Assembly: GCA_958009085.1 (NCBI GenBank)
Contig: OY253679.1
Location: forward strand, 682,001 to 746,000
Reading direction: 5' to 3'
Source: Protoeuglena noctilucae
Taxonomy: Eukaryota
Length of the DNA stretch: 64,000 nucleotides
The notes under the pieces are model-generated. The model was not told where the DNA came from and did no database searches. It was given only the letters and a program-made list of their open reading frames with translations. Of the stretch, positions 499-60,600 are shown piece after piece. The position numbers were made by a program, and so were the translations under genes. Numbering within the stretch: the first letter of the stretch is position 1; each line of letters starts with the position of its first letter.

Positions 499-929
499 GG
501 CGAAGATAGTGAGAGTGCCGCCGGGACCCCCCGCCCGCGCCTCGGCCGAGGGCATGCTGGGCCTCCAGTCGCTTCCTTTTTTTAGTTCAAGCACGCTGCC
601 CCATGCGACAACCGGGGCGCAGCCCCCTCGAGCACTCACGTGGCGTTGTCGAACTCTTCCCGATCCTCCTTCGACAGGAGGTCCGGGGGCGCGGCCACGT
701 CCATGGCACACGAACCAGCGTCCCAAACCGCCCGCGCGCGGGCGTAGGGCGGCACACGTGGCGCAGCGTGCACGAGTCAAGGCAAGCGTGTGGAAAGTGG
801 GCTTTTTCCAGCGCTTCATCCAGCTTGGTCGCCGAGGGGGCAGCACTTTGCCCTGCTGGCAAACGCGTCGCGAGATAGGCCTTCAATTCGCCGCGGATGC
901 AGGCATGCAGAGGCAACGCGCTTCGGAAA

Positions 930-2005: not shown

Positions 2006-2602
2006 CCTCGGGCCCTGCCGGTCGCCCGCGCTGCGGCACCGTCCGCCTGTGGCAGCGCCCTGTAAGCAAGCGGCGAGCGGCGAGGGTGGCGCGGGCAGGG
2101 TGGCTGAGGGCGGGCGCGGGAGGGGCTCGCATGTCAAGAGCGGCGCGGGCCTCGCCCGGAACGCGCAGCTGCCCGGCGCTCGCGCCGCGCTTATCCTGAA
2201 CGCACCTACGACGTGTCAATGGGACGGCGTCCTCGATGTGGAATGGGGTTACCAGGAGACGCCAGGGAGTTACTTCCAAAGGCTGAGGATGACGGTCACC
2301 GCTTCTCCGACGCAGCAACGACTTAGCCACCGCACATGATGCCATGGCCCAGGCGCGTGGGGCTGCGCATCTGCGAAAGCGCCACACATTTCCAGAACAC
2401 GCTGTTCCAGCACCGACGTCTCACTGTTGTGCCTCAAAGGGAACAGGCCCGGGCCTCTACGACTCACTGGAGCGCTCGCTGTCCTGCCAGCGCCATCTCA
2501 GGTTGTCCGGCCCAGAAGGGGCGAGTTTCACAGTGCGCTTGCCTCCCCCGCCAGGCTTTCGCCGTCGCCGGGGCTTGGAAGCTTGAGCGAAGAGACGTCA
2601 CG

Positions 2603-4367
2603 ATGGACGTCAGCTCGGACAGCATCGCGACGTTCGTGTCCGTCACGGGCGCTGACGCGTCCCGGGCCCGCTTCTTCCTCGAAAGCGCGGGGGGGGATCT
2701 CGATGCCGCCATCGCGCATTTCTTCGAGGCGGGCGGCAACGAGGGAACGATGAGTGACGGTGAGGCGGCGGACGCGGCGTAAGAGCCTCGCGGCGCCCCG
2801 CTGCGGCCCCAACGGTTGCCTCGGGCTGTCGCGTCGGGCGCAGCGTTTCCAAGGCCTGCAGCGCACCCCGTTCGATTCTCGGCCCACCGTTGCGGCGCCG
2901 TACACTCATGCACTTGCGGCACGCGTTCGCGCAGATCCCGTCGAGCCACCGCGGCGCGCGGAGGCGCCACCAGAACGGGTCCTGCCTCGGCAGGTCGTGG
3001 AGAACCGCGCCCGGGACGCCCCGCCCGCCAGGTGCGTTTGGCTTGCGACCCGTATCGTGCATGCGCTCCCGCGGTGCTCGGCGCGTGCGACAGGCCCGCG
3101 AAGGAGGATGCGCCACGTCACGCAGGGGGGCTGTGGGTCCCGCCGGGACCGGCCGCGTGGCGGGATTCTCAGATCTCGCGCGCAAGGACGACGGGAAGAG
3201 CAAATTTAACGAGCTCTACACGGGCGGGGCGGGGCAGAGCGGGATCGCGGTGCAGGGGCGCCCGGAAGACGACGACGAGGACGACGAGGACGAGGAGGAG
3301 GCAAGGGCGTTTGGAAGGGCGCTGCGGGGCTGCTGACAGATCCATGTAACGTGTCGTGAGCGTTCCTTTGGGCACCGTGCTCGCAGGACGAGGTGGGCCG
3401 GCTGTTCTCGCGCGTGCAGAGGCATGGGGCGCGGGCGGGGACTTCCGAGGACCTCCAGGGGTGAGGACGTCGCGCGATGTGCCGCTTGCATCGCCTCGGT
3501 ATCGCAGGCAGCGAGCAGGTCCCGTCTGCCCGCGCACCGCAGCGACGGGCGTGCTCCGGTCTTCACGGGCCGTGCGCACACCCTGGCGGGGTCCTCCCGG
3601 GACACCCAGGCTCCCCGGTCGGCGGTTAAGCGGTACGTGGTGGTTTTCTACGCGAACGGCGTCTTCACCGTGGACGACGGGCCCGCGAGGAGCGTGGAGG
3701 ACCCCGCCAACATGGGCTTCATTGTGGCCATCTCGCGGGGCGAGCGGCCCCGGGAGCTCAAGGTGCGGGCCTAACGCCACGGGGGCGCCACGCCGCGCGC
3801 CGTGTCTGAGAGAGGTCCGCGCTGCGAGGGACGGGCATTCGTTCCCGTGGTTGCAGCCCGACCACCCCGACCAAGAGGTCGAGGTCAGCCTGGTGAGGAG
3901 AGCCGAGCCGTACGTGCCTCCGAAGGAGCCCGTGGCGTTCCAGGGGAAGGGGAACAAGCTGGGCGGGGACGCGGAGGCCGCGCCGGTGGCGCAGGAGGCA
4001 GTGCAGGGTGCGCGTTGCCCCGGCTGTGCAGGGGCAGGGCTGTCGGCTGTCGTGTTCAGTGAGCTTGCTCTCAGCAACACTCCCAGCCCGGCCCGCAGGC
4101 ACCCCGGGGGATTGGCCGGGCGCCGACGACAGCAAGCCCAAGACGCGCGTGAACGTGCGCCTGGCGGATGGGAGCCGCCTGGTGGCCGAGTTCAACCTGG
4201 ACCAGACGGTGGCGGACATCCGGCGCTTCGTCGTTGCGGTCCGCCCGCAGCTTGCGGGGACGTCGTACCGCCTGCTGGTGCAGGACGTGCCTCCGCGCGC
4301 GCTTGCGGACGATCGCAAAACGATCGCCGAGGAGAAGCTGGAAAACGCGTGCGTCATGCAGCGCTGA
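2603..4367 (+). CDS. p47/NSFL1C/Shp1-type CDC48 adaptor (UBA-like, SEP, SHP box, UBX; plant PUX3-5-like), multi-exon
   Basis: IATFVSVTGADASRARFFLESAGGDLDAAIAHFF (UBA-like), ELYTGGAGQSGIAVQG, FTGRAHTL, FYANGVFTVDDGP...ISRGERPREL (SEP), FQGKGNKLG (SHP), TRVNVRLADGSRLVAEFN (UBX). Confidence 0.93.
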
Positions 4368-19610: not shown

Positions 19611-22600
19611 TCACCCCACCGACGCCCGCAGCGGCTGCGGCAGTCGGCTCCTGGGCCGCGGCCCCTCCTCACCCCACCCGCCCCCCACCGCCCCAGCCCC
19701 ATCTCTCGCCCCATGCAGTGCCGCACCCCCGCCCGCCGCCACCGCCGGCCCTGCTTGCGTGACCGCAACAGTCCCTGACACACTGGCTGTGTCAGATGCG
19801 CCAGTGAGGATCGATTGCAGCACTCCCGTGGGGTAGAAGTGGTCCTTCCGGACGTAGCAGCCCGGGGTGCCTGACTTGTGGCCCGCAGCCTTGCATTCCT
19901 GGGGACAGGGCGGGGGATGAGGGTGTGGGTGAGTGGTGGGGGTGTAAGTGGGTGAGGGTGAGGGTGAGGGTGGAAGTGGGTGAGGGTGAGTGGGGTCTTA
20001 TTCACATCCACTCGCCTGCCACTCCACCCCATACAAAAAAGGTCCTCCCCCCTGCACCAGCGCGGGGTGGAAGCGGCACTCCCCGGGGCACGTCGCGTCG
20101 TTGCCACCGCACCGCACGCACGACAGCGAACCATCAGGGCGGCCGGGGGCGAAGGGGTCGCGCGGGAAGAGACCCGGGGGCTGCGATTGCGATGAGAACG
20201 CCCCTGCACCCCCCACCGCCCCTCCTGCAACCCCCGCAGACACCCCAGGCGTTGCCCCAGGTGCCACCCCACCCCCGCCTTTGCCCCCCGGCTTCCCCAG
20301 CACCGCGTCGACCCGCCCCGCCGCCCTCTCGCGGTCCGTCGGAGGCGGGCGAGGGGGCAGGCCACCCCCCCGGGGCGGCTGGGCGGGGCGGGGGGCGTGC
20401 CGTGACACGACCTGCAGGGCCGCTTGCTTCTGCGGGGAAGCGGAGAGTTGCATGAGGTTGTTATGAGAATATGAAAAGGTGGGCCGATGGCTGTGCTGTG
20501 TGCCGCCGTCGCCTTTCCCTGCACCCTCTCATTCCCGGCCCCCACCCCTCCTCACCTCTGCCGCCGTCGCCAGCCCCCGCAGCGCCCCCCGCACCGCTCG
20601 GTCCCCCGCCACCTCTTCGTCCTCCTCCAACGAGGCACCGCTCAGAATGGCATGGACCTTCCACGCACTCGCATCACCCTCGCGCTCCCCACCCCCATCC
20701 CGCCCCTCTCTGCCGGACTCATCCCCACGACCCCCCCCACCCACGCCCCCACTCGGTCCCTCGTTGCCATGCAAACCCACGCCCGAATTCACGCCCCCAC
20801 TGGCACCCGCACCCGCACCCACAGCCGCACTTGCACCCGCACCCTCCTGCTCATCGGCCCACCGCACCGCCGCCCCCACCGCCCTCGCCTCCTCCGCCAC
20901 TGCCCTCTGGATCACACTCGGCTCCCCCTCCCTATGCACCGGGTCCCTCTTCACATGCGACAGTGTGTGCGCATTCATGTACCCCACACGTTTCGCTCGC
21001 CCCACCTCCTCCCCACCACCCACCCCCTGCCCTCGCCCAGACTCCCCCCCACCATCCACCGCTGCTCCCCGGCTCTCCTCCAGAGCCCTCTGCGCCGCCG
21101 CCACCAGCCTCACCGCGTCCGCCATCGTGTGATACGGCGTCACCATGTCGTCATCCAACCCACCCGCCCCGCCTGCCCCAGTGCCCACCCCCTGTGCACC
21201 CTGTGACCCCACCCCCTGTGCACCCACACCCGCGCCCTGTGCCCCCACCGCACCCCCCCCACCGCGCTGCATGCGCCTCAGGTCTTCCAGGAGCGCCCCC
21301 ATGCCCTCGTCCCTCGCGTGGATGGCCCTGCCCGCGTCTGCCACCAGCCCCGCCACATTCTGCTCGTGGCGGGCCTGGGCCTCCACCAGGGCAGCACGGA
21401 CCTTGGGGGGAGGAGAGGGGTTGGTGAGTGTGGTGAGGTGAAGGGGGGAGTGCATGAGAGGGTGGTGGTGGTGGTGGTGGTGGTGGTGGTGGTGGTGGGA
21501 TGGGGCGAGAGGGGTGGAGGGGTGGTGACGGTGGAGATGGATGGGTGCGCGGCAGGTCTGGGAGGGAGAAGGCACTCACCGTGTCACCTGCACGTCCTTG
21601 ACTGCCACCCACACCCCTCCAGCACACCCCTCCACTGCCACCCCTACCACCCTCTCCCCTCACCGGCGCGTCCTTGACCACTCCATTGCCACCCCTAAAC
21701 ACCCACCCCTCCACCACCACCCTCTCCCCTCACCTGCGCGTCCTTGACTGCCACCCTCGCTTCCTCGTCACCACTCCTGCATCACCACCCATCGATCCAT
21801 CACCCCCCCATCACCCTCTCCCTCACCTGCGCGTCCTTGACTTCCACCCTCACCCATCCATCACCACCCCTGCGTCACCACTCCATCACCCACCCCTGCA
21901 CCACCACCCTCTCCCCTCACCTGCGCGTCCTTCACTGCCGTCTCTCACGTGCTTTCCAACCACAGCACCCGCTCACCTGCGCGTCCTTCACCGCCGCCTC
22001 CACCCTCAGCGCCTCCCTGGCCCAGTCCCCGTCTCGGAAGGCACCCAGCTCCCTCCTCAGGTCCGCCATCTCCGCCCTGGCGCTCTCCATGTCACGGTGG
22101 TACCTGCGAGAGCGAGAGAGGCAGTAGCAGCATTGGTTTTGACTCTGTAGCATTGAGTCTCGCTTGCTTCAGGTGTTGTGCATGGTAACCGGCTGGAGAC
22201 CTCAGCAACCAGCAACCACACCTCTCCCTCATCTCCCTCACCACCCCCACCCCCACCCCTCACCTCTCTTTCATCTCCACCAGCTCCCCCTGCATCTGCG
22301 CCCGCTGCCGGTACAGCCGGTAGTCCGCGTCTGCCTCCGCCCCCTCCCTCATGGCAGCCAGGGCCTCGCGCAGTCGGGCGTTTTCAGAGGCCAGGGCATC
22401 GGCACGGGCCTCGGCAGCGAGGTCCTGGGGTGGACAGGAGGGGGGGGGTGGGGAGGGTGGGGATGAGGTGGCAGTGAGGGTGGTGGTGTGGGTGGCAGCG
22501 AGAATGGTAACGAGGGGTGTCAAGAGGGTGGTGAAACAGGTGAGGGATATAAGAAGTGATGATAAAATTCCTGGCTCATCTCCACCCTCCCAGCAACACC

Positions 22601-24642: not shown

Positions 24643-25908
24643 ATGACGGAGGTAATTCTCCGGCGGTTTTCCTGTCTGAGCCTCTCGATGCGATCGTTGC
24701 GGGCGCCGCCAGGGAGCAGCGCTGTGCTGCGAAAAGCCTGCTCTGGTCGTATGCGGGGAGATGTCGCGCACGCGCGCCCGCCGGACCAGCAGGTAGCCAG
24801 TCGGGACGTGCAGGCGGGGCTTGTCAACGCTCGTTGTCTCTCCAGCGTCGGGTCGTGTGCGCTGGTCAAGCCCGGACGCGTCATCCGTTCCGCGGCCCCA
24901 TCATCGAACGCTGCGTTGGTATTGGACCGCCTGGGCGTAAGCGAGGTTATCGACTTTCGCGCGCAAGAGGAGGTGGACCAGGACCCGCCGGACGTGTGGA
25001 CCTCCACGGTCGAGGTGCTCTACACCAGGAACGAGAGCGGCGACCTGGCCAGCACCTCGGGGGCAATTGCAACGGACGGCAAAGTCCTCCGCCACAGGCA
25101 GGACTGCTCAGCCGCGCATGGTGGATGCATGCGGCATGACGGCAGCTGACTCGCGCACGCACGCACCTCTCCGCATGCAGGATATCAATTCTCGACCGCG
25201 ACCGCTTCTACGTGGCCCTCCTCAAGCGCCTCGTGGTCTCGGCGCCCTTAACTCTCCTCGCCTCTCTCCTCCTGAGGGTGTTCGACGCGCAGCGCTCCAC
25301 CGACCTGCTGCTGCAGGAGGTCAACAAAGGCGGCCTGCCCCAGCTCTACGAGGTCATCCTGGAGAGCTCCAAGCCCGAGCTGTGCGCCGCTCTCCGCATC
25401 ATCACGCTCTGCGCCGAGCGCGAGGGGTGTGCCTGGATCTACTGCCGCGCCGGCAAGGACAGGACGGGCCTGGTGGCGATGCTGGTGTTGGCGGCAGTCG
25501 GCGCGTCTGACGCAGACATCGTGGAAGACTACGCCCTCTCGGACGCCCACCGCGTGACCGCCCTGGGCAACCTGGAGGACACTCAAGACCTGAAGAAGCT
25601 CGACCGCGAGGTCTTCTCCCGCGCGCCACGCGAGGCCATGGAGCACGTGCTGAGGTGGGGGCGCTGGACGTGACGGCACGTGCCTTTGTGACGGCACGTG
25701 CTTTATGACGGCACGTGTGTCGCAGTGCGTGTTGCAGCGCAGTGGGCGCTCCTCGCGACCCCAGGCTCCGCGCCGCTGCAGGTATGTCCGAAAAACGTAC
25801 GGAGGGTTCAACAAGTACTTAACGTCCATCGGCTTCACCGAGGAGTGGCAGGGGCGCCTCAGGGCGAGCCTGGGCGTGAACGGGGCAGAGGTAGCAGAGA
25901 GGGACTAG
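24643..25908 (+). CDS. Tyrosine/phosphoinositide phosphatase (Y_phosphatase3 / IphP-like)
   Basis: RDV...GRVIRSA, LGVSEVIDFR, catalytic loop IYCRAGKDRTG, DIVEDYALS, YGGFNKYL. Confidence 0.9.
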
Positions 25909-26953: not shown

Positions 26954-27172
26954 CTCCACGAGCGCGTCGCGCCCCGCCCACAGCGACTATCCCCGCTGCC
27001 CCGTCAAACTGCACTCGTGGCCCGTCTGGCAAGGCCCCGCGGATCCTCAGCGTTCCCTAGCGGCCGTCTCGACGTCCCGGGTGGATCTATGCGCGTGAAG
27101 TGCCCGGACTGCGCGAGCTCTGCGTGCCTTCGCTGCTCGCGGGTCGTCCAGTCAGGTGCCCTACGCCCGTCT

Positions 27173-27325
27173 CATCGGGAAAACCCGGCGATTTGACGTC
27201 ACTCGGATCAGAAGGATCGCGGGAATCACTGGATTCATCACAGTGATCCCCGGGAATCGCCGGGATCATCCCCGTGATCCCGGCGATCCCCGCCACTGCC
27301 GCAGTGATCCCAGCGATCCCGGGCC
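27173..27325. repeat. Left TIR plus subterminal TGATCCC/GGGATCA repeats
   Basis: Dense cluster of GATC(C)/GGATC/GAATC motifs in both orientations. Confidence 0.85.
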
Positions 27326-27864
27326 GCGGCCCTGACGCGCGTGCGCGCCCCCGCGTTTGCTCAGGGGGCTTGAGAGGAGGCGGAGAGACCGCACATTTGC
27401 TAGTTGGTGCTAATGACTGCCTCGGAGGCCCCTCTCGCGTCCTAAAGCTTGCTCCAGCATGCAGACGGGGGCCGTCGACGCATCCGGGGTCCGCTTCCCC
27501 TGCGCCGCCGCTGTTCAACGTGAGATGTCCATATCTATGCGATGAGCGGGAGCTCGCGGGCTCGCCGGGCCCCCGGGGGCGCCGGGGAGGTCCCCGTGCT
27601 CGACCAGGCCTACCGCCGCCGCGGCCGCGATCGGGCACGCAGCGCTTGGCCTATGGATTGAGGTGACCTAAATCTCGCTAGCTGCGGCGCCTTTGCCGGC
27701 TACGCCGCACGGAGGTGGCTGCTGCATGGGAGGTGAGCCGTCCCCGCCGTCATGGCGCTGCGGATGGGGGCGCGGGGCTGGCTTCGGAGAATTATCTCGA
27801 TACAGATGACATCGCCGGCGTCGGGGACCTGGCACCGCGAGCATCGGGGAGCTCCTGGGGTCAC

Positions 27865-30800
27865 CTACTCCTCGCCGCCGCTGGCGTGGTGCTCCCAGAC
27901 CTGCTGCACGTGGCCGCAGTGAAGAAGCTTCCCAGCAACTTTCACGGCGTGAAGCTGCCGCCGAAGGTTGCGGAGGGGCACGCACTTCAGAGCCTCGCCC
28001 TCCGCAGGCTCCAGGAGCGACAGCTGGGGAGGCTGCAGCGCTCCCAGGTTGGTGTAGAACGACAAGCACTGGTTGGACAGGTACCTCAGGTCGCATGGGG
28101 CCCTGTGCACCGGGGCCACCAGGGCGCAGAGGAAGGTCCCGGCACCGGAGCTGGTCTTCGCCTCAACCCCGCACATGACCCTGCCCGTCTGCAGCGTGCC
28201 CCTGTCCGGGAGGTACTCGACGAAGGACAGGGTCTCGTCGGTGGCGACGATCCTGGCCCGGTCCCCGCTGGCCGTCCCGATCTCGACCGTGGAGGTCAGC
28301 GCGACCTCGCCCAAGACGTGGCAGGGAAGCCCCGCGCCCTTGAGGGCGTTCAGGAGGTCCGCCTTAGAAACGAAGTCTTCCGCGCGTCCCTCGCTGCACA
28401 GGTCGTTCTTCTTCAGGACGGTCTTCACGCCCTTCACTTGGTCCTCGGGCTGGGACGGGACCGGCTGCTCCGCCCTCGCCCGGCTCTTGATGACGGAGGC
28501 CGCCCTCTGAGAGATGACGCTGGTGCTCGCCTGCGACAGGGCTCGGGGGTCAGTCCAGCGCGGCTCAGCATGGCACGCGGGTCGAGCGCCGTGCGACCGC
28601 ATCGAGACGTGTGAGTCGCAAGAAACGCGTCCTGCGTGGGCTTCCCCGCGTCGCCTACGCTGGGCGGCGCTTCTTGCCTGTACCTGCACGTCGCCCTTGC
28701 CGTTCGTGCGCGCGTTGGCAATGGGCTTGTGCATGCGCTCGGCGTCGTTCATGCTGCCCAACATGATGGAGCCGTTCCTCGCCACCACTGCAGGGAAATG
28801 CGAAAGCGCGTGGCACTTCTGGCTGTTCTCGATCTTGCTGAAGAGGGGCTTCTCCGTGCGGACGATTTCGTGGCCACGCAGCAGCGTCTTGAGCACGACC
28901 TGCGGCGACACGGCAGCGACAAGGCTTCCAGAGTGAGTAAGGGGCAGCGAACGATGGGGCTGGTGTTGGAGAAGGCCTCACGTGGAGGACCTTATTCAGC
29001 TGCGCGTCCGCCGCCTGCGCCCCTGCGATGGTGGCGCTCTCCAGGGACCATTCGGCATAGAGCTGAAGGCATGCCAGGGCTACGGCCACGAGCCCAACCC
29101 TCTCGTCGTGCACGTCTTTGCTGCCCGTAGGCTCTGCAAGGGATGTGGTGGTGGGGAAACACTCCCGGGGTTCCCCGGCCCGCATCGCGATACCCGCAGC
29201 TCCTCCCGATGCCCTCGCAGCGCTGACTGTCGGCCTCGCCTCGAGAGAAGAGCTCGACGAGGGCGAAAGGCAGAGCTTGGATCAAGAACCTCGCCTCGTA
29301 CGCCTTTATCTTCCCAAACGGGTCCACGAGGCTCAGCACGATCTGGAAGGTCTCGCCCCACGGACGGGCGTGGATCCATGCCGGGGCCTGCGCTCCACCC
29401 ACACGACGATGGACATGCCAGGTGAATACCGAGCAGCTGCGGCGCCACTGCAGGCAACGCACGCCATTGCCTGACCTGCAGCTCACCTTGGCATCCGCAA
29501 TGATCGATGCGAACGCAGCCAAGAGGGCGTTTGCCTTTGTCGCAGACTCTCCCGCTGCCGCGTTGTTGTAGAGGACGGTCAGTATGCAGAAGGGAACAGT
29601 CTTGCCCAACATTCCCAGTTCCACGGTGTGCATGGGGTCAGGTGCTTGGCCCTGATACAAGTCCGACCCGAACTCGTCCCAGTACGACAGGGCAGGAACC
29701 ACAGGATGAATTTTGCTCTCCCTGGCTTGTTCGTTGGCCCTGGCCGTCCCCACGTCCCTCCTCAAGCGCAGGATGTGCTGCACCTGGAGGCGATGCAGCG
29801 CGACGGTGCGAGGCGTGCGGCAGTCATCCTGGAGGCACAGCGGGCACGACCTGACGGCCAGCGTGGACGAGTTGGCCATCATGTCGTTCAGCTGCGCCGC
29901 CAAGACGGGAAAGACGATGACTCTCCCGACGTCGGGGAGGGTCATCCACACCCCACCGGACCTCGCCACGCCAATCAGCTGCCGGTCCACGGCAGCCAGC
30001 CGCCGCTGGATGGCCTCTCTGTTGTTCAGGTCTGCCTGTGACCCCGGAGTGATCCCGGACACCTGCGGGGGCCTCGAGCGACAACTCATACACGCGGCGT
30101 GGTGGTGGACGTGTGGGCTGCAACGCCGGCAATCCTCCTCTCGCCTTCATGGACTCGACGGTGGCCACGGTTCGCGGCGTCCCTGTCCTCACGGCCTTGC
30201 AAGGCGACAGGAGGTGCATGTGGATGGGCGTCGTCGATGCGCCCTTGGTCATCTCCACCCCGTCGATGCTGTACGCGACGGGCACGAGGAGCAGCCGGGC
30301 GTGCAGCTCGGGGCGGACTTTGCCAGCGACAGCCTCGGCTATGTCGCTATACCCCTTCGCCCGGGAGAAGGTGAGCTTCTCGTGGATGCTGGGATGCGTC
30401 TCATGTGGTCTCGCCCGCGCCTGGCGTGACCGTTCCCGTGCCTCGCTGAAGTCTCGCATCAACTTAACGAGCGTCTTGGGCTTGATCTGCTCCGCGTGCA
30501 CCAGCATGTCCCTCAGCACCGTTATCGTTTGGTAGATGATGGTTGTGCTGCCCTCCTCTTGCAAAACCTGCAGGCCGTGCGTGCACTGGTTGGCGTCAGC
30601 CCCCTCGGCCGCGTCCGAGGCCCTCGACACAAGCGGCACCGCGGCGTGACGCACCTCGTACTGGCCATGGATGCTGTTGAGTGAGGTGTGGAACGTGCGG
30701 TGGGAGCGCCCGAGGTCGAGAAGGTCGTCGCGGATGTCGGGGCGCAGCTTCACGAAGCAATCGAAATGCGCTGCCGTCAGCGATGCCATGAACTGCGCCC

Positions 30801-31368
30801 CTGCTTCAAGTTGGCTCAGGTACTCATCGTCACTGTCCCTGCTCCTGGCCCGCCATGCCTCCAGGTCCTCCGGCAGCTTCAGCGGTTCGTACTCCCCGGG
30901 CGCAGGAAGGTAGGAGACTCCAGGAGCGTCCTCTTGGGGCGCATCATGCGCTCCGGCGCTCTCGGGCGGTTCACCCCTCTCCGAGTCAATGTCCACGTCC
31001 ATGTCCACGTCCGTGTCGGCGTAGTGGAGCCACGCGAGTCCTACATCTTCGCTCTCGCCATCACTGCCCGCAGCAACGTCCGCCGTCCCGTCTTCCTCCC
31101 GCAGTTCTTGGTCTGGTCCCGCGCTGGCGCTGTCGCGTGCCAGCCCGTCCGAGCCTCGCAGAGACGGAGAGACATAGTGTTCGTGTGGGGCGGCGGGGCG
31201 GGGTGCTTCCTGGCGGCTCTCCTCGCCATATCTCCAGCCCCACAGCGCGGGGCATCTTTGCTGATGCCGGGCGAGCTTGGCCGGGGTATCGAATTGCGTT
31301 CCACACGCGTCGCATTCGAGCATGGTGAGCTGCAGCGCAGGTTGCGATGCAGGGTTCAAGGCGGGCAT
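27865..31368 (-). CDS. C2H2 zinc finger + Plavaka-like transposase (spliced, ~6 introns)
   Basis: CDACGTQFDTPAKLARHQQRC; VPVAYSIDG; PIHMHL; LPDVGRVIVFPVLAAQLND...CPLC; PDPMHTVELG; KCHALSHF...NG...ERMHK...TN. The order and motifs fit the Plavaka transposase as recalled. Confidence 0.78.
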
Positions 31369-32574
31369 GGTGAGGGCGTGGAAGCGGAGGTGAGGAAAGT
31401 CCAGCGCGCGCTCTGTGGGTCAGGCAGGCTCAGGGGTCGTCAGTCCTCCAGGCAAGCGGGGGTGGATTACAGGGCTGCAGCGACAGCACCGCGCACAGGC
31501 GAGGCTCGGCGCTGCTGGTGCGAACAGCGCTGGATCATCGTCCCTCTCTAGGGTGAGAGTGCAGCCTGCTGCTGAGCCATCTGCGAGGTGTGCTGACGTG
31601 GCTGGGGAGGGGAGGGGCCAGCTCCCGTGAGGTGAGATGCAGCATACGCATGACTAGATCAGGTCGGACATTGTCGCTGTCCCCGAGGTGCGCGGTTGGT
31701 CTGCTGCGCTACCGGTGGGGTCTGCGACACGGTCAGGTGTGCAAGGGGGGGTTGGTTGGCTGGGAGGGACGAAGGGCTGGTCCGCCAGCGTGGTATCTCT
31801 GTACTTGCTTACTGTACCTGGCACCGTGCCTGCACTCTCTCACCCCGAGACTGACTCTAACTTCGCCTAACAAGCACGCAGGCGCACGTGCCACCTCGTC
31901 CCAAGTTCCGGCGCTGGTCGGGTGCTGGCCGGGCCCGCCATGGCTCGTCCGCCGACCCATGCCCCTTGTCTGTCGTCTGGCGTCCGCGGCGCCCCGCAGC
32001 GGTGGTCATCGACTCCTGGGGCGGCCGTCGGCACGGCGGAGTCGCGCACGCCACCATCTCCCGAGTGCCTGGCCCGAGTGCCGGAGCGCCGCTCCCCGAT
32101 GGAGCGGCAGCGTCCGGAACAAGCGGTCGGTGCCTCTGGCGGTGGTCGCTGCGCGCTCCCGTCGCGCCTGCGGCCGCCCGAGTCCGGCTGCATGTGCGTG
32201 CATGAGTGCGTTGCCTAGAGCGTCACGGATGGTCATGTAACCTCGGCGTAGGGATTGAAATACCAATAGCTACGCTAGGGAGCGATTACGGGCCGAACGG
32301 AGCCCCCCGGGCCGCGCGGGCCCCGGAGCGCGGGTGCCCAAAAGATGCGTCCGATCGCGATCAAGATAGGTCTGATCGCGGCCGAGAAGGAAGATAGGCG
32401 GCGGGATAGCCTCGGCTAACGCTTCCGGCGCCGCTGCGCTCCCGAGTGGGCCCCGCTCCCCGCGATCCCCGACCACGACGAAATGCCGCGAAACTGCTCC
32501 CAGCGGCCTCTCGCATCCCGGGTGCGCCGTGGCCGTAACCGCGCCGCGTAAAACGGCCTCCCCAGGGAGATCGG

Positions 32575-32745
32575 GCGCGCGGCTGGAATCACTGGGCTCA
32601 ATGAGGGTTTACATTACAATCTGTGTCGTCAGTGGGATCACTGGGATGATCCCTCTGATACCCCGGGATCAGCGGGATGATCCCCACGATTCCTGGGTAT
32701 CACGGGGATGATCCTACTGACGCCAGACTCGCGGTTTTCCCGATG
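32575..32745. repeat. Right subterminal repeats plus TIR
   Basis: GGGATCACTGGGATGATCCC..., GGGATGATCCC..., ending in GGTTTTCCCGATG. Confidence 0.85.
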
Positions 32746-32924
32746 TTTGGGCCGTGGCGCGAGCTACCCCCCGCCCCTGAGCTGTCGTCATCGCGGGAGG
32801 GGCGCCATTCCGGTCCTCAGGCGCCAAATCGCCGGTGGCGGGTCGGCGCGGCGGACTTTTCTGCGGGCGAAAAGGACGGGAAGCCCCCGGCGCTCGCTTC
32901 CCGCCGCGACCGGACGGGGTGGAC

Positions 32925-35245
32925 ATGGCGGAGAGGACGAAGCGCGAGGCCCCAACGGTCTCGAGCATCGTCAAGAGCCTGGTCGCGGGCGGCATCGCGG
33001 GGGGAGTGTGAGTGGCCAGCCCGCCCCTTTGAGTCCTGGATTCGCTGCTGGGGCCTGGGGCGGAGGGCCAGCGGGCCTCTTTTGCTCGAGACCCGGGGCG
33101 GCCTGTCCCGGCCCCCGAGCATCGCGTTTGCGGGCGAGACCGGGGCGATTTCGGCTCTGAGTGTCGGGATGGAGCTTTTGTAGCGCCGCACCCCGCGCGG
33201 CGACGGCGGCCAGCTTTTGGATTGCTGCCCCGGGCGGGAACCCGTTCGCTGGGGCCGTCCGGCCCCGGCTCGCGTCGGCCAGTGCGATAAGTTGCTCGTA
33301 GGGCCTCGGTGTCCAGCGGGGGCGTCCCGATCGGGCCCGGACCGCCGCCGCGAAACGGGCTGAGGGGCAGTTGCGCCCCTCCCGGCGCGGGGACCGCTTT
33401 GGTGAACAAAATGGCACTCGTTTCCGTGCCAGGTCGCTTTCCCGGCCCTCGCCTGCGCGCGCACGCCGCGCTGGGCTCGCGGGAGGGGACGGGTGGCGCG
33501 GCGCGCCCGTCACCCTGTCCCCCGCCGCCCGCAGCTGCCCGTCGCCCTCGCTGCCTGCGCCGTCGCACTGGTTCGCTCTCAAAGAGCCCCTCTTTGTCGC
33601 CCTCGCAGGTCGAGGAGCGCGGTGGCTCCCCTGGAGCGCTTGAAGATTCTCATGCAGGTCCAGGGGAACGACAAGGTGTACAGGTGAGGCTCCGGGCGGA
33701 CCCGATCGTTTGCTTGACGCGAGCTCTCCGCGGGCGTGTTGCTGGGATTCCGCTCGCGCCCTGCGGGGACGCGATGCTGCCCCGCCACCGCCGCCGCACA
33801 CGGGGCCTTTACCAATTTCCCGCCGCCCTCGCGGGCCATGGCGCGAGATCAAATGGCCGGCTCCCGAAAGCTGACGTGCGCCCACTTCCATGGCCCGCCG
33901 CGCGTCCCCTCGCCGGCGGGCCCCATTTCGGCCGCCACATTTTGTACTCCCGGGCCGCCGGCCGCCTGAGCCCGCCGCCGCGCGCCCCGAAGCCCCGATA
34001 TCCCGGCGCGCAGGGGCATCGTCCAGGGCGTCGTGCAGATGTACCGCTTGGAGGGCATCCGGGGGATGTTCAAGGGCAATGGGACCAACTGCGCGCGCAT
34101 CATCCCCAACTCCGCTGTCAAGTTCTTCTGCTACGAGCAGTTCGCGCGGCTCATCACCGCATGGTGCGTGCGCGGGAGCGGGGTGCCGGATCCGGGGCCG
34201 CTCCGACGCCGCGGGCCTTTTTTTGCACACAAACGTCGTGTCGCTTTGCAAAAACGCGTTGCTTTCCGCGCCCCGCCCGCCCGCGACGCCCGCGCCGCTC
34301 CGTCCGCAGGCGGGAGAAGCACTACGGCGACCCGACGATGACGCCGGGCCTGCGGCTGGTGGCCGGCGCGTGCGCGGGCATCATCGCCATGACGTCGACC
34401 TATCCGCTGGACATGGTCCGCGGCCGGCTGACGGTGCAGGAGTCCGCGGCGAAGCAGCAGTATCGGGGGATGTGGCACGCGACGGCGACGATCGTGCGGG
34501 AGGAGGGCTTCTTCGCGCTGTACAAGGGGTGGCTGCCGTCCGTGATTGGCGTGGTGCCTTATGTGGGCCTCAACTTCGCCGTCTATGAGACGCTGAAAGA
34601 CATGATCATTCGATCGGAGGCGACCGCGGCGGAGACGGAGCGGGACCTGAGTTGGATGACGCGGCTGGCGTGCGGGGCGGTGGCGGGCACCACGGGGCAG
34701 ACGGTGGCGTACCCCTTTGACGTGGCGAGGAGGAGGCTGCAGGTCTCGGGGTGGCACGGGGCGGACCACCTGGTCAAGGTGAGAATGCATAGGGGGGTAG
34801 GAAGTGGGGTGCATGCTAGGTCGAACCTACATGTGACGCTGATGTGCGAGTGTAATGCGCTGATGCGCTTGCTGGTGGTCAATAGCGCAGGTCCCCGCCA
34901 TTGCGTCACGATTGTCACCCGTCATCTCCCTCACCACCACACATGACCCTCACCCTCATTACCCTCTCTCACCCCCCCAACTCACCACCTCACTTCTCCC
35001 TCACTACCCCTCACCACCTTACCACCCCACCACCCCACCTCACCCCCCAGGGCGAGTTCGACGCGCGCCACTACCGCGGCATGATGGACTGTTTCGTCAA
35101 GACGGTGCGGCACGAGGGGGTGTCGGCGCTGTTCAAGGGGCTCTGGCCCAACTACGTCAAAGTGGTGCCGTCCATCGCCATCGCCTTCGTCACGTACGAG
35201 CAGGTCAAGGAGGTCCTCGGGGTCGAGTTCCGGATATCCGAATGA
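32925..35245 (+). CDS. ADNT1: Mitochondrial carrier, ADNT1-like adenine nucleotide transporter
   Basis: SLVAGGIAGGV|SRSAVAPLERLKILMQVQ, FKGNGTNCARIIPNSAVKFFCYE, TYPLDMVRGRLTVQ, AYPFDVARRRLQ, KVVPSIAIAFVTYE. Confidence 0.92.
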
Positions 35246-40790: not shown

Positions 40791-41227
40791 GGGTGCGCTG
40801 TGTTTTGGTGGGCTGTACTGCGTTGTTCTCGGCTGTGCTGGGTTGTGTTCTGCAGTGATGTGCTGTTTGGTTCGGCTGTGGCGTTTTGGTGCAGCCGCGC
40901 GACATGCGCCGAGTGGTATTTACTGATTGACAGCCAAGATTCGGGGCATTTGCTCGCGCGTAAAGCCTTGCGTGGATGGCATTCCGCTGATTTCCATCAT
41001 CCGATTCCGATTCCGTTGAAAGTGAGACATAAGGAAAAAGTGCGAGACGCTTCCACGCATCTCAACCTTACAAAACGCATGGCGGCGTGGCTGGCTCTCA
41101 AAAGACCATGCCCATCAAAACCCAACTCTTCCGGTACAGGGAACCTTGCAAAACCGAAAGCCAAGGAGCACCATCATCAGTGGCCCTCTCGCAGCCCTTC
41201 ACCCTTCCCACTCCCCATCCACCCCCT

Positions 41228-44200
41228 TCACCTCCCCTGCTCCAAATCCCTCGACAGCCGCGCCCGCATCGCCGCCGGCGTCATCGGCGCCCCCCGCCCC
41301 TCACCCCCACCCCCACGCCCCCCTGCACCCCGCTCTCTCCCGGCCATCGCCTCCGCTTGCAACTCCAGCAAGCCCCGCACCGCCTCCGCCAGCCAGTCCA
41401 CCTTCTCCTCTACCCTGGCCATCCTTGCCGCTGCCTCCACAGCTCCCGCGTTTGAGAACCCACGCAGCCCCGCTACCGCGCCACCAAACGAGCTGAACTC
41501 GCGGGGCCAGTCCTCCTGAATCGCAGCACTCACGCTACCACCGAAACCCACGTCGATGTTCCCGTCCCGCTCCACAGCATGGTCGTCGTGCTGCACGCCG
41601 CTCCCCCCCGCCCCCTCCACCTCCACAGCCACGCCCTCAGCACCTGCTTTCTCCAGCGACGCCCTCGCAGCCTCGGTCGCTGCCCCCGCAGCCTCGGTCG
41701 CTGCCCCCGCATCCAACCCCGCGCCACCCTCCGGCCCAAGCTCGGTCATGCGTCGGGACTCCCCACCGCCCCCCGCATCTGTCCCGGACCCCTCGCCCGC
41801 CTTGGGATTGCCATCCGCACCCGCATTCCCACCCGTACCGCCACCCGCACCCGCACCGCCACCCTTCGCGCCACCCCCCACTGGCGTGCCGACCGGCACG
41901 TCCACCCCAACCTTGCCCTCGGCCCCATGATGCACCAAATGTGGCAACCCCCCGATCAGTGGCTTGTGCAGGCCTCCTAATAGATGGTGGCCCCGCATGG
42001 ACATCTTTCGCAGTCCCTTGATGCCACGCACGGTCGCAGTGATGGGGTTGAGGCTGCTGAGGAGGGCCGAGACGCGGAACGCACGCTCCTCCTCCTCCTC
42101 CTGGGGAGTGGAAGGGGAGAGAAGGGATGAATAATGAATAAAATGATATTATTAATAGTAATACTTGTATAATTACAAGACATTAATTGTAATATCTAGC
42201 ATGCAATACATTGTAAACATATAATAACATATAATATGAATAATATCATCCATAACAATAACAAAACAATTGACCACCAACCACTCTCCCTCCCTCTCCA
42301 CCCCACTACCACCCTCCCACTCGCCTTCATCTGCTTCCTCCTGGCTTCCCTCTCCTTCCCCTTCACGTGACTATTCCACAACATAAGCACCAAATACCCC
42401 ACCACGACAACCAGACTGGGCCACAGGAAGCCCTGCTGGTAGCCCTGCTGGTTGAGGGAGGTCTGCACCCCCGCGGCCGCTGCCACCACGTTGCTGTAGA
42501 CGTACGTGCCCGTGTCGCCGGTCCAGCCGGGGAAGAACGTGCTGTGGGTGGGGGGCAGGGAGAGAGGAACGTGATGTGGGTGGGCTAGGATTGCTAAGAG
42601 GAGGGAGGAATGGATTGAACTGGTCGGTGGCAGGTCGTGCACCCTCACTCTCATGTCACTGCACTGCACCTCACAGACGGCAACGTCACCGCACCCATTT
42701 CCGCACCCCATCCACCCATCACCACACATCCCCCACCCCCCCATCTACTCCATCTACCCCCACCCCCATGTGTCACTCACCCGACCGACTGCTGGTGCGT
42801 GGGCGCATCAACCGCACACACCCCACCCCCCATTTATCCCAATCACAGCCTCACCCGACCGATTGCTGGTAGGTGGGCGCCGCCCTAACCGACCCCTCCA
42901 AATACGCCAGCGTGGCCTCCTGCAGCGTCTCCCTCAGCGCACTGAACCCCGCGTTGGGCAGAGCCGCCGCGAAGTTGCCCGGTCACACCGCGGGGGAGGC
43001 CACTAGGTCAGAGTACGCCCCCGTTTCAAACAGGGCGTAAGCCACGGGGGTGTCCAAGAGGCCGGCGAAGACCTCGCCGGACTTGACTTGCTCCAGGCAT
43101 GTCTGCTGAGAGGTGATGGTGGAGGTGACGCCGGACTGGGGGGGTGGGGTGAGCGGAGGGGAGGGGTGTGGGTGTCCGTGGGGTCAGGGGTGTGGGGTGA
43201 GGGGAGAGTTGCGTGGGGGGGGGGGGGTGAAGTGTACACAGACGCCCCCTCTCCCACTCTCGCAACCATCTTCATCAGTCATATAACACATGAACCTATC
43301 CCCATCATGCTTATTCCCACTCGCCTGCTTGCTGAGCCAGTCCTGGAAGTACCCCGGCCCGGCGCACACAGACCTCCCACTCAGGTCCTTCCCCGTGCTG
43401 GGGATGTTAGACGCCGCTCGGGACTCAAATATAACAGCCGTGAGGACCCCCGTGATGCTGGATGCGATGAGAAGCGACATCATCATCCAGAAAGCGGCCA
43501 CGCAGCGGCCCCAACTGCAATGATAGGGGGGAGGGTATGGGAGGTGAGGGGTGGGGTGGGGTGAGGTGGGGTGTGAGGGGTGAGGTGAGGTGGGGTGGAG
43601 AAGAGGTGGAGAGGGCATGCTAAGTGGGACCAGTGCAGTGCCACCGCAGTAAGACCATCACCTAGTCAAAGATAGCATTTCATCCCACCCCCTCACCCCG
43701 TGATAAGCACTCACTCTCACTCCACCTTCCTCACTCACCCCGTAATCGGCACCCGGTCCCCGTACCCCACGGTCGCCATCGTCACGATCGCCACCCACAT
43801 GCCCTCATCAATGCCGCGCGAGTAACGAGGGTCGAAGTTCTGAGGCTGCGCGCGGTGCTCGGCCAGCCACAGCAGGTTTCCCACGATCACTAATAGCAAG
43901 AAAGCAGCTGCTAGCACGTTGATGACGTCCGGCTGGATGATCTTGGGGGCAGCGGAGGTGAAGAAGGAAGTGCCGGGAACGTGCACGCGGGAGATGATCG
44001 CGATGCCAGAGGCGAAGTAGGAGGTGCAGAAGTCGACGCAGCAGGAGTTGTCGTTGGTGGGGGAGGTGCCGGGGGCTGCGGGGGGGGTGGGGGAGGTGGG
44101 GAGGTGGTGGGGAAGGTGGCGGAGGTGGTGGGGGAGGTGCCGGGGGCTGCGGGGGAGGTGGGGGAGGTGGAGGGATGGGGAGGTGGGGGAGGTGGGTTAA

Positions 44201-45406: not shown

Positions 45407-46688
45407 ATGGTCGTGTGCGCGGCGCCAGCCCGGGCGTTGGTTCGTCCCCCGGCAGCGGGCCCTCGGACGTGGTGGGTGCCCGTGCGCCGGGCATGTTCCG
45501 CACAGGTGGGGCCCGAGCGAGGTCGCGTGGCATGCACACTGCGATGACCATGCTGGCAGCGATGTCGCGACTTCGATGCGAGACGCGAGCGTCGCGAGGA
45601 AGCGCTCTTGTCCCACCCGTCGCAGGCCTCGTCGTCCTCGCGCGACGACATGGCGCCCGATTCGTCCACGGAGGCCATGACGGCTGACGATGCCAGGGAC
45701 ATCCTCGGGCTGCCAGGTGAGGAGGCCTTGTGATTCGCGGGTCGCGATTGCACCTCTGCGCCCTCTGCGCGCTGGCCTCCCGCGCCCGCGAGGCACCGCC
45801 GAGCTTGCGCGCCCGCAGCGCGAGCGACGTTTGAGGAAGTCGTCGCGGCCAAGAACCGCGCCGTGTCCAGCGCGGGCCAGGACACGGGACGTCTGGCCCA
45901 GATTGAGAAGGCCTACGACGCCCTGCTCCTGATGTCCATGCGGGCGCGTCTCGAGGGATCCGTCGATGCCAAGGTCAAGTACGTCGCCCTATCGCCGCAT
46001 CGGCGCGGTCGGCCCCGCTGAGGAATGCCTCCGCAATTTCGATTGATGTCTCGTTAATCGCGTGCCCCTGCTCCCAGGTTTGCGGACGTCCCCAAAGCCA
46101 AGCCGATGCGCAAAGCACAGCCAACGACGCTCCCGGGCGGCGTGGCATTCGCCCCGGTCGACTCGAACGAGGCGCTTCTCCATGCGGCCATCTTCGGCAT
46201 CCTCACGCTCTGGACCCTGGCCCAGGTGAGCCTCACTTATGGCCCATGCTCTCTGTTCACCGAGCAAGCTATGCCGATTAGTGCAGCTCTGCGGATTGCG
46301 AGAACCCAGTTCACCAACAAGCAAGAGCTATGCTGGTTGTCAGTCGTGGGCATGACAGCCCTGCTCACGGTCCGCCCCTCCTCGCCCGCAGGGCTCGCAA
46401 GTGCAGCCGGGCTTCCCAGATGCGGCCCCGGGGCTGCAGGTGGGTCTCGCGGTGGCGTCGGGGGTGTACGTGCAGAGCCAGCGGAAGCGGGGGGACCTGG
46501 GGAAGAGCGCGGCGATGACGCTGTTCGGGCTACTGCTGGGGACTGCCCTGGGATCGGGGCTGCAGGCGGCTCTGCGAGTGGATTTGGTGCCTCTGGGCGC
46601 CCTGGGCTCGCCGTCGTGCCTGGTCGGCGCCACGGGCATCCTGGGCGCCTGGGCGGCCACCTCCTTGCTCAAAGACGTCAAGCGATGA
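45407..46688 (+). CDS. Chaperone-like protein of POR1 (CPP1/CDF1, DUF3353), plastid
   Basis: Transit-like N-terminus, DARDILG...ATFEEVVAAKN...IEKAYDALLLMSMRARLEG...VK|FADV, C-terminal TM helices. Confidence 0.85.
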
Positions 46689-57630: not shown

Positions 57631-60600
57631 ATGTTGCGGAGGGGAAGGGGCCTGGCCAGCGCCGCCCTGGCGCAGTGTAGATTAGCTGCAGGCGATGGCG
57701 CCTCGCGGGCGGCGGCGGGGATCCGCTCGCCCTTTGGCGCCGGGCTTGTGCCCGCCGAGCTTCCGAGGACCCCTCCGCGGTGGCCGTCGCGCTGGGAGGG
57801 ACGTGCTCCCCTCTCGCAGCGGGCTTCCTTTTCGTCCAAGTCGTTAGTGAGCGTGAATCCGGAGAAAGCGTCCTCCTCGTCCGCGGGTTCCGGTGCGAAC
57901 GCTGTGGCTAAAGCATCAAGCCCCTCTCGCCGCGCGGGCGGGCCTCCCTTGCGCGCTTCGACCCGATATACATGTACTTTGCTTCTGTCAGTGCCCAACT
58001 GCGGGCGTACCACGATCCCCCGACGCCCGCCCTCGGCGCAGATGGCCCGGACCGCAGCGCGCCGCCGCGCCCGGACAGCAAGCCGCGCTTCCAGCCCAAC
58101 TGGCAGCAGGCGTACCGCGCGCTCATCGCGGCCTCGATCACCTTCTTCTTCGCCAGCATTTTCTTAAAGAAGGAGGTCGACGTGAACCACCAAGAAGACA
58201 CGGTGAGGCGTTGGCATCGGCAAAGCGCCCATACCGAATACGGAACGCTTGCTTGGTTCCCGCCAGCATGCTCATTTCACTCGCAATCCATGCCATCTAC
58301 ACCCACAGCACAGCACAGCACAGCACAGCACAGTTACACTGCCCCACTCCCTCCTCCCTCTGCCCCACTCCCTCTGCCCCACTACCCACAGCCCCACTCC
58401 CCCACTTCCCACTGGTCCCATTCGCAGACGCTGGTCAACTGGTCCGGCACCCACAGCGTGCGCGTGCGCAGCGTGGATGAGCCAGAGACCCACGAGGACC
58501 TGGAGAGGCGGGTGCAGCGGGCGCATGAGAGGGGGTGCAAGATACGGCCGTCGGGGTCGCACCTGTCGCCCAACGGGCTGTCGTTCCAGGTAATCTAAGG
58601 GGTGCTTAGTGGTGCGCCAACTAGATGCCACACGTAGATGCGGTGGATGAGTGCAGTGCGTAAATGGGGTGGTGCATGGGTGGCATAAGCCCTCTCTCTA
58701 CACACATACCCCCTCTCTCTCTGCACCTCACCCCTTTCTATCATCACCCACTCTCTCAGGAAAAAGGCATGGTCTCCCTGGGCCTCATGGACCGCGTGCT
58801 CCACGTCGACCCGGAGCGCCGCCAAGTGACGGTGCAGGCGGGGGCGAGGGTGCAGGAGCTCGCGGACGCCCTGCGGCCCCACGGGCTGACGCTTCAGAAC
58901 TTCGCGTCGATCCGGGAGCAGCAGGTCGGGGGGTTCACCCAGGTGTCGGCGCACGGCACGGGGGCGGGTATACCCCCCGTGGACTGCCAGGTGGTGTCGA
59001 TGCGGCTGGTGACGCCCGCGGAGGGCACCGTGACGCTGAAACCGAGCGACGGGGACCGGTTCTACCTCGCCCGCGTGGGGCTGGGGGCGCTGGGGGTGGT
59101 GAGCGAGGTGACGCTGCAGTGTGTGCCTGCGCACCGTCTGCTGGAGAGGACCTTCGTGGCGACGCGGGCGGACGTGCGCAAGAACCACAAGCAGTGGCTG
59201 CGGGAGAACAGGCACCTGAGGTACATGTGGATTCCCTACACCGACGCAGGCGAGGGGAAGGGGAGGGGCGGTGGTGGTGGGGGTTGTGAAATGATTATGA
59301 TCATATGAGAGGGTTCTTGGGGTCCGACACACCCCACCCACCCCCACTCACTCCCACCACCACCCCACGCACCCCCACTCACCCCACCCACTCACCCACT
59401 CACAACCCCAGTGGTGGTGGTGACATGCAACTCACCCCACTCACCCCCACCCAACTGACCCCACACCCACACCCTTCCCAGTGGTGGTGGTGACGTGCAA
59501 CTCACCCCACTCTCCCAATCACCCCCACTCACTCACACCCCCCTTCCCACCCCCGCAGTGGTGGTGGTGACGTGCAATGAGAGCAGAGACGGCCGCGTGC
59601 CGTCCGAGTCCGGCTGGTTCTCGAAGCCCCCCAAAGTGTACAGCGAGGAAGAGAGGCTGCAACCCCTGAAGGACCTATACGCTCACATGTCCGGTGCCAC
59701 ACCCGTCGACATGGCCGGTTTGTCTGCCACGCAGCTGCGGGACCACTTACTGGGCCTGTCGCCTTTGACCAAGGGATACGTGGCGCAGGTCAACCAGGCT
59801 GAGGCCGAGTACTGGCGGCGCAGCGCGGGGCACAGGGTCGGGTGGAGTGACGAGATACTTGGGTTCGACTGCGGCGGCCAGCAGTGGGTGCACGAGGTGG
59901 CGTTGCCGGCCGGGACGCTGTCGCGGCCGAGCATGCGGGATATTGAGTACGTGGAGGCGCTGCTGGAGCTCATTGAGAAGCACCAGATACCCGCGCCGGC
60001 GCCCATCGAGCAGAGGTGAGGGGGATGGAGGGGGGGTTGGAAAGTCAGGGCGAGAGGGGGCTGGGGTGTAGAGGGTGGTTGGAGGGTGAGAGGGCTGGGG
60101 CGAGAGAGGGTCAGGAGGGCGAGACTCCCCGCTCCGTCATGTCCCCACCACTGCTAACACCCTCAACCCCATCACCTCCCCCTCAATATGTCATCACTCA
60201 TCTCTGCATCAACACCTTCATCCCCATCCCCATCTCCCCAGGTGGACGGCCCGCTCTACATCGGTGATGTCCCCCGCCTTCAGCGACAACGCCGATGACA
60301 TCTTCAGCTGGGTGGGCATCATCATGTACCTGCCCAACGAGGACCCCGTGCAGCGCGGGGCGATCACCAACAAATTCCAGGAGTACGTGCACCTGTGCGA
60401 GAGGCACCTGATGCCCAAGTACCGGGCCTACCCCCACTGGGCCAAGCTTGAGCCACCGGAGGACGACCAGGAGAGGTCGAGGGTGCAGAGGTGAGGGATG
60501 GATGTTATCCATTTATGGGTGGTGCAGAGGTGAGGATGATGGTTGAGTTGTAGATGACCAGGAGAGGTCGAGGGTGCAGAGGTGAGGAGTGGTGGGTGAT

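Follow-up and report, generated by a model that had tools for sequence, protein, structure and literature searches.

The 64,000-nucleotide stretch of Protoeuglena noctilucae contig OY253679.1 analyzed here (the window) carries, at positions 27173-32745, a 5573-bp element that belongs to a young, multi-copy transposon family. The element is likely to be one copy of a class II cut-and-paste transposon whose core is distantly related to Plavaka. It shows the general features of class II elements with terminal inverted repeats (TIRs), namely the TIRs themselves, an open-frame transposase gene of its own, several copies with different flanks, and deletion derivatives.

The element is bounded by a perfect 13-bp TIR, CATCGGGAAAACC, which reads on the plus strand at 27173-27185 and, as its reverse complement, on the minus strand at 32733-32745. 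The left TIR forms the 5' end of the element on the plus strand and lies on the 3' side of the gene. These two are the only matches to the 13-mer in the window, even when up to 2 mismatches are allowed. The pair by itself is compatible with chance (at least 2 matches at 2 mismatches arose in 32 of 100 shuffles), but the similarity of the two ends extends over about 110 nt, both in a blastn alignment (114 nt, 72.8% identity) and in a global alignment. Inside the TIRs, both subterminal regions contain repeats of 31-bp period: 2.0 copies at 27220-27281 on the left (region 27186-27330) and 2.7 copies at 32633-32714 on the right (region 32575-32732). These arrays are built of GGGATCA/TGATCCC-like words and are presumed to be transposase-binding sites. 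The more general pattern GGRATY/RATYCC is found 8 times at the left end (27173-27330) and 6 times at the right end (32575-32745), with 3 occurrences in the 5244-bp interior and a window-wide density of 1.2 per kb; no other 160-bp stretch of the 64 kb is as dense in it as these two ends. The TIRs and GATC-rich subterminal arrays that a first-pass annotation had described from the sequence are thus present as described. No second copy or fragment of the element was found elsewhere in the window with blastn.

The ends were located by comparison with other copies. The stretch or part of it occurs in 18 listed entries from 8 studies, which comprise marine metagenomes and three organisms, and we compared the contigs of four public runs: a metagenome (X1), organism A (X3), organism B (X9), and an RNA library (X10). 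In the organism B run, a contig matches the window from 27173 onward, and unrelated DNA ending in ...GTTACAA abuts that position. On the right, three contigs (two from X1 and one from X3) diverge from the window directly past 32745. Since the flanks of other copies diverge at these positions, the element ends are fixed there, and its termini can be defined as the first-pass annotation had expected. The alternative ends considered in that annotation, CCC at 27166 and GGG at 32751, are excluded, because the flanks of other copies switch at 27173 and from 32745.

The same comparison established the size and youth of the family. Contig depth, a rough proxy for copy number that in a metagenome may sum several strains, is roughly 10- to 27-fold higher inside the element than on its flanks; the roughness of the proxy and the possible summing of strains weigh against reading this excess at face value. 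In the metagenome run, five contigs of the element have depths of 287.7-374.8 between flanks of 14 and 14.1, and in the organism A run the element reaches 1354.9-2797 between flanks of 143.8 and 138.5. The organism B contig, 5647 nt long, contains the entire element next to a left flank different from that in the window. Together with the depth excess, this contig demonstrates that the ends are linked to the gene elsewhere and that the family is multi-copy. Seven differences from the window copy (27240, 27371, 28176, 31249, 31469, 32333, and 32619) recur in all four runs, which puts the window copy at ~0.13% from the family consensus (7 of 5573 positions). Among these changes of the window copy, one is synonymous in exon 1 of the gene, and another places Met in the window copy where the consensus has Val, at codon 119 of exon 7. 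In X1, 43 of 52 contigs are at least 99% alike, as are 69 of 106 in X3. For the rest (9 and 37, respectively) the figure is 90-99%, indicating that older variants exist as well.

The family also includes internally deleted forms. In the first, a joint from 28292 to 31552 skips 3259 nt; its contig depth is 14.6 in X1, similar to that of the flanks, and 61.9 in X3. The second and third are known from predicted proteins: P0001 and P0002, encoded on a 3084-nt contig, span a deletion of ~124 nt, and P0003, encoded on a 4273-nt contig, spans one of ~288 nt. Ac/Ds- and En/Spm-type families acquire internal deletions of this type when gap repair aborts after excision. We also scanned metagenomes with a pattern consisting of the TIR, zero to two arbitrary bases, and GCGA. 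At least 120 loci were returned, and none of 120 matched the element beyond the pattern (0 blastn matches at an E value of 1e-5); the best short matches among them were the 17-19-nt pattern itself, which is too short for such a scan. The joint expected of an empty site (27172 to 32746) is not listed among the contigs of the four runs. Contigs drop rare forms, so the missing joint is no evidence of fixation.

We next consider the gene. The element contains a single minus-strand gene of ~961-965 amino acids (aa) in 6-7 exons. The first-pass annotation had joined the open reading frame (ORF) pieces of this gene through five host-style introns, and the borders (GT-AG or GC-AG) and frames of all five check out. 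The junction formerly left open has two frame-keeping solutions that share an acceptor at 29134, an intron at 29239-29134 (GC-AG, 106 nt) or at 29227-29134 (GT-AG, 94 nt). The GC donor at 29239 has the context GAG/GCGAGG and resembles the GC donor of intron 2. When the exons are joined by coordinates with six introns removed, they form one open frame of 961 or 965 codons whose sole stop is terminal. Exon 1 (30655-31368, 238 aa) begins with the start codon at 31368 and encodes a zinc finger followed by an acidic low-complexity stretch. It is followed by exon 2 (30145-30567, 141 aa); exon 3 (29487-30062, 192 aa), which encodes the putative catalytic core; exon 4 (29228-29387), which ends at 29240 with the GC donor or at 29228 with the GT donor; exon 5 (28991-29133), preceded by the acceptor TTGCAG at 29134; exon 6 (28684-28899, 72 aa); and exon 7 (27865-28530, 221 aa plus a stop codon at 27865-27867). 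The intervening introns, apart from that at the formerly open junction, are predicted intron 1 (30568-30654, 87 nt, GT-AG), intron 2 (30063-30144, 82 nt, GC-AG, frame-shifting), intron 3 (29388-29486, 99 nt, GT-AG, in frame with a noncoding-like GC profile), and two GT-AG introns ahead of exons 6 (28990-28900, 91 nt) and 7 (28683-28531, 153 nt). All intron acceptors end in GCAG.

Codon-position bias supports this model. In all six exons measured, the G+C content at third codon positions (GC3) is 0.74-0.90 and that at second positions (GC2) is 0.39-0.49, a bias equal to that of real genes in the same genome; the individual GC3 values include 0.74 for exon 1, 0.82 for exon 4, and 0.90 for both exon 6 and exon 7. 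Predicted intron 1 is less clear-cut: its GT-AG borders and frame are as proposed, but it may instead be coding, since it is in frame, lacks a stop codon, and has a GC profile of 0.79/0.55/0.90 over the three codon positions. No other ORF inside the element has a coding signature, and the element is therefore a single-gene element. Noncoding DNA within it amounts to ~1.4 kb upstream of the gene and 0.7 kb downstream. The internal part of the upstream DNA (31369-32574, 1.2 kb), free of ORFs with a coding signature, is presumed to hold the promoter and 5' untranslated region, and the internal part past the stop codon (27331-27864) is without TGTAA or AATAAA. As a separate observation, the gene contains one certain and one possible GC-AG intron (30063-30144 and 29134-29239) with the donor context G/GCGAG in common, which would hint at the host lineage if its genes also used GC donors often.

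Expression of the gene was assessed in the RNA-library run, which yielded one contig of 5527 nt (27173-32695) that is colinear with the DNA and retains every intron. Its depth is 46.9, compared to 0-5 on the flanks. This excess resembles that of the DNA run from the same sample, and carry-over of DNA therefore explains the contig as well as transcription does. The RNA-library run lists no splice joint, although contigs cannot show rare spliced forms. Since no spliced RNA was seen, we infer splicing, and with it the intact and autonomous status suggested in the first-pass annotation, from the gene model. These two results, an RNA-library contig that is unspliced and possibly DNA-derived and splice joints that are missing from the contigs, are points against an active element. 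They would fit a family that is real and young yet now immobile, in which the window copy is non-autonomous, its gene is unexpressed or spliced otherwise, and the copies are relics of one recent burst. The private non-synonymous change in exon 7 and the imperfect duplication flanking the window copy (described below) point in the same direction. Against such immobility stand the small distance of the copies from the consensus, a frame that is open across seven exons, several independent deletion derivatives, and the different flank in organism B, all of which fit ongoing or very recent transposition. We consider loss of mobility a rather unlikely account of these data, and a transposon that has been mobile until recently, and may still be, the better one.

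We then examined the predicted protein for its relationship to known transposases. In exon 1, the finger at ~31249-31317 matches zf-C2H2 at an E value of 0.038 (14.9 bits), below the cutoff. The first-pass annotation had called it a C2H2 finger, and this weak match agrees, while the residue pattern is C-x2-C-x12-H-x3-C, that is, of the C2HC type. Exon 2 contains a candidate first catalytic Asp in SIDGVE (30270-30253), picked by motif. In exon 3, also by motif and by eye, a candidate second Asp lies in QLNDMM (29894-29877), a C(2)C motif, CPLC (29846-29835), follows 12 residues past it, and a candidate Glu lies within DPMHTVELG (29639-29613). The resulting order, D ... D-x12-C(2)C ... DxMHxxE, was assigned by eye without a family alignment, and these residues would make up an Asp/Asp/Glu triad. 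Single-sequence AlphaFold2 models are poor, with a mean predicted local distance difference test score of 34.9 for exon 3 and 42.7 for exon 7.

The exons and ORF pieces were scanned separately against a Pfam library of 24,736 models, with E values given for the whole library. At an E value of ≤10, exon 3 matched one family, PF18759 (Plavaka), at an E value of 0.0072 and 16 bits. The alignment is colinear: 120 residues of exon 3 (33-152) fall on the last third of the profile (positions 198-317 of 325), from the strand preceding QLNDMM through CPLC to DPMHTVELG. Plavaka had been named beforehand, in the first-pass annotation, and the PF18759 match is therefore more telling than its score suggests. 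In a protein-language-model Atlas look-up with exon 3, 24 of 30 feature hits belonged to the Plavaka set, the best at 0.96 with 182 of 256 features shared. The termini agree as well. Elements of the EnSpm/CACTA-Mirage-Chapaev-Transib (CMCT) clade are reported to have 5'-CA..TG-3' termini and a target site duplication (TSD) of 2-5 bp, and PlavakaB elements to have 5'-CATCA..TGATG-3' termini with a TSD of 2-3 bp, compared to TGT..ACA for PlavakaA (PMC12730594). The termini of the element, CATCG...CGATG, satisfy the CA..TG rule and share 4 of 5 bases with PlavakaB, the fifth base being G rather than A.

Several results weigh against assigning the element to Plavaka. The PF18759 score of 16 bits is below the gathering score of 26.3; exon 2, where the first Asp is expected, is without any Pfam match at an E value of ≤10; and the longer ORF pieces match only the zinc finger, and no transposase family, at an E value of ≤1. 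The Atlas recognition value of 2117 is under the mark of 2300, so that the Atlas result counts as a lead and as weak evidence. Of 1.84 billion representative proteins, among them many fungal Plavaka proteins, phmmer matched exon 3 to a single one, its own 99%-identical cluster, and word-seeded protein searches with exon 3 (E values up to 10) likewise recovered its own cluster only. Finally, of the published C(2)C and H(3-4)H motifs (PMC12730594), the latter is absent as such from exon 3, where the sole candidate for paired histidines is H-x5-H (29798-29775). The HMMER comparison with PF18759 that had been proposed as a check thus gave a weak, sub-threshold positive for the exact exon 3 and none for the ORF pieces.

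These points would be expected if the element were a cut-and-paste transposon of the CMCT clade from a separate, unnamed lineage outside both PlavakaA and PlavakaB. A Plavaka model match that is weak and confined to the last third of the domain, the lack of relatives in so large a protein set, the H-x5-H spacing in place of the published H(3-4)H (PMC12730594), a fifth terminal base unlike that of PlavakaB, and a compact single-gene layout that differs from the giant multi-gene Plavaka elements of red algae would all be accommodated. We nevertheless think a separate lineage, the chief alternative for the family, improbable, as Plavaka is the only family that any test indicated, PlavakaB termini likewise begin with CATC, and kingdom-level divergence alone can explain the weak scores. 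The core is thus probably that of a divergent transposase of the Plavaka lineage, within the CMCT clade; Plavaka-like is the best available label, and the family assignment that it implies is weakly supported.

Searches of nucleotide and viral collections added no relatives: viral contigs searched by protein and by a 30-nt string from the left end gave no match, nor did genome contigs searched with a 30-nt internal string. One candidate was rejected. A Methylobacterium contig (L121), the sole locus returned when genome contigs were searched by protein, encodes a 702-aa ORF that shares the CPLCLQDD region (32 residues, 50% identity), which we attribute to a word-seeded chance match, given its bacterial ORF neighbors. 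This ORF (743-2851, plus strand) has a CxxC region, lies downstream of another long ORF, is unrelated to the transposon, and is presumably TniQ-like.

The sites at which copies are inserted bear on both the target choice and the superfamily. Both flanks are known for the window copy only, where the element is preceded by TCT and followed by TTT (CT and TT at 2 bp), with one mismatch either way. The first-pass annotation had reported CT/TT next to the core TIR and no clean TSD, and these flanks are confirmed. The imperfection of the duplication is a further point against the transposon reading; the flanks are possibly a 2- or 3-bp duplication with one mismatch or, alternatively, those of a duplication-free insertion at an A/T-rich site. 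Among the other right flanks, the three contigs that diverge past 32745 continue with ATAAA..., those that diverge past 32747 (three in X1 and two in X3) share TT and then read A..., and those that diverge past 32749 (one in X1 and three in X3) share TTTG and then read T.... The TT and TTTG past 32745 reflect chance sharing between other flanks and the window locus. In a genome of ~67% G+C, every right flank listed has A or T at its first three positions (ATA, TTA, or TTT), which argues for a target preference. Because the same loci may be represented in both X1 and X3, the number of independent flanks is perhaps 6-8 rather than 12.

Targets of this kind raise the question of whether the element comes from a different DDE superfamily with short A/T-rich targets, such as a PIF/Harbinger-like or Spy-like one, its Plavaka likeness being coincidental. 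PIF/Harbinger elements typically insert at TWA, and Spy elements enter between runs of A and T and produce no duplication. The right flanks and the sub-threshold Plavaka score would fit such an origin. However, the Pfam families of PIF/Harbinger, hAT, MULE, KDZ, and Tnp2 gave no match for any exon even at an E value of ≤10. KDZ (PF18758) was likewise without a match in 6 ORF pieces at an E value of ≤1, after none in 6 exons, and PF02992 (Transposase_21) matched neither any exon (E ≤10) nor any ORF piece (E ≤1). Moreover, the element has one long transposase gene and no Myb-like second gene, and its motif order is that of a CMC-type core (PMC12730594). Membership in another superfamily therefore appears highly improbable, and we retain the Plavaka-like reading.

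On this Plavaka-like reading, the protein of ~961-965 aa would be composed of an N-terminal C2HC-type zinc finger, a DDE-type core with the C(2)C zinc motif placed between the second Asp and the Glu, and a C-terminal domain of no known family (exon 7 matches no Pfam family at an E value of ≤10). The core would be distantly related to Plavaka, within the CMCT clade. The transposase, presumably through its zinc finger, would bind the GGGATCA/TGATCCC repeats in the ~150 bp beside each end; the CATCG...CGATG termini would then be paired, and the element would be excised and reinserted into short A/T-rich targets. The internally deleted, non-autonomous copies may result from faulty repair of the gap that excision leaves.

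Among described elements, the PlavakaB transposons of Agaricomycotina (PMC12730594; PF18759) offer the closest comparison. Both start with CATC, end with GATG, and fit CA..TG; both are TIR elements with a DDE transposase and a C(2)C motif past the second Asp (for our element, a candidate residue); PF18759 is the sole Pfam match to the putative catalytic exon; and the CT/TT or TCT/TTT flanks of our copy are compatible with a TSD of the published length (2-3 bp). Our element differs in being sub-threshold in Pfam, in having G rather than A as the fifth terminal base, and in being without H(3-4)H and without TET/JBP cargo. It also differs in its host, a marine alga, in its GC-rich host-type codon usage, and in its 6 introns. 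With plant EnSpm/CACTA elements it shares short TIRs followed by subterminal repeat arrays in two orientations, a putative CMC-type core, and internally deleted non-autonomous derivatives. Unlike them, it has CATCG rather than CACTA/CACTG termini, no Transposase_21 match, one gene rather than two products, and no demonstrated 3-bp TSD.

The statement in the first-pass annotation that Plavaka transposases are known mostly from fungi is out of date, as reports now also cover red algae, chlorophytes, and streptophyte algae. Giant Plavaka elements are described as occupying a third of the Bostrychia genome (bioRxiv 10.1101/2025.02.11.637652); Plavaka candidates are listed in red algae, chlorophytes, and streptophytes, including a putative Spirogyra Plavaka (PMC13519894); and "EnSpm-Plavaka" families of Auxenochlorella are presented as potentially active, with polymorphic insertions (10.1101/2025.02.07.637104). 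What these have in common with our element, compared by description rather than by sequence, is a Plavaka-type transposase in an algal host. Potential activity, proposed for the element here, has been suggested for the Auxenochlorella families as well. The Bostrychia elements are 17-19 kb long, carry three accessory genes, and are mostly degenerate, whereas our element is 5.6 kb long, has one gene, and has near-identical copies.

The element is flanked by a tyrosine-phosphatase-family ORF (25140-25670) on one side and by a mitochondrial-carrier gene (32926-35242, plus strand; Mito_carr at an E value of 2.4e-15 on the piece at 34886-35242) on the other. The likely start codon of the carrier gene, at 32926, is 181 bp from the right end of the element, and the two genes are divergent; the element is therefore inserted in the promoter or 5' region of the carrier gene. 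Separately, an RNA-library contig covers 33185-33500, in the region of the carrier gene. The window further encodes a fragment like CPP1, a plastid-type chaperone of POR (46356-46685, plus strand), a fragment of MIP-T3/IFT54 (61784-62281, minus strand), an Isy1 fragment, and a multi-exon P-type ATPase. The CPP1-like and MIP-T3/IFT54 fragments point to a flagellate, photosynthetic host, and the predicted genes of the window support an intron-rich eukaryote of this kind and the term alga used in the first-pass annotation. Elsewhere in the window, tandem arrays of 70-93-bp C-rich or G-rich units in 2-3 copies occur at 21700-21939, 44055-44195, and 59361-59577, the last between two coding ORF pieces. 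The G+C content dips to 0.57 at 42001-43000 (window average, ~0.67), beside a GC skew of -0.40 at 41001-42000. Rfam and tRNA scans of the window gave 0 hits.

Since Plavaka has already been published from red, green, and streptophyte algae, the element is not a new kind, and the finding leaves knowledge of this kind of element unchanged. It is a well-defined and unusually intact new example of a known group, and closer relatives, or the same family, are possibly contained in published supplements (Kojima Figure S2/Data S1, Spirogyra Figure S3, and Auxenochlorella Dataset S3). To date, algal Plavaka-type elements have mostly been giant, decayed, or just entries in repeat tables. The element described here is compact, with exact ends, an open frame, about 10-27 near-identical copies, and several deletion derivatives, which together qualify it well as a candidate active reference element. 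Possible uses include defining the termini and target choice of a transposase group that is poorly known outside fungi, and transposon tagging or the tracing of strain-level insertion polymorphism in a marine alga that is present in several public metagenomes. A bolder interpretation, which we find unlikely, is that the element represents a deeply divergent, unsampled CMCT lineage that currently transposes in a marine alga of wide distribution, choosing A/T-rich trinucleotides in a genome of 67% G+C. Were this the case, the alga would have a candidate insertional-mutagenesis tool of natural origin.

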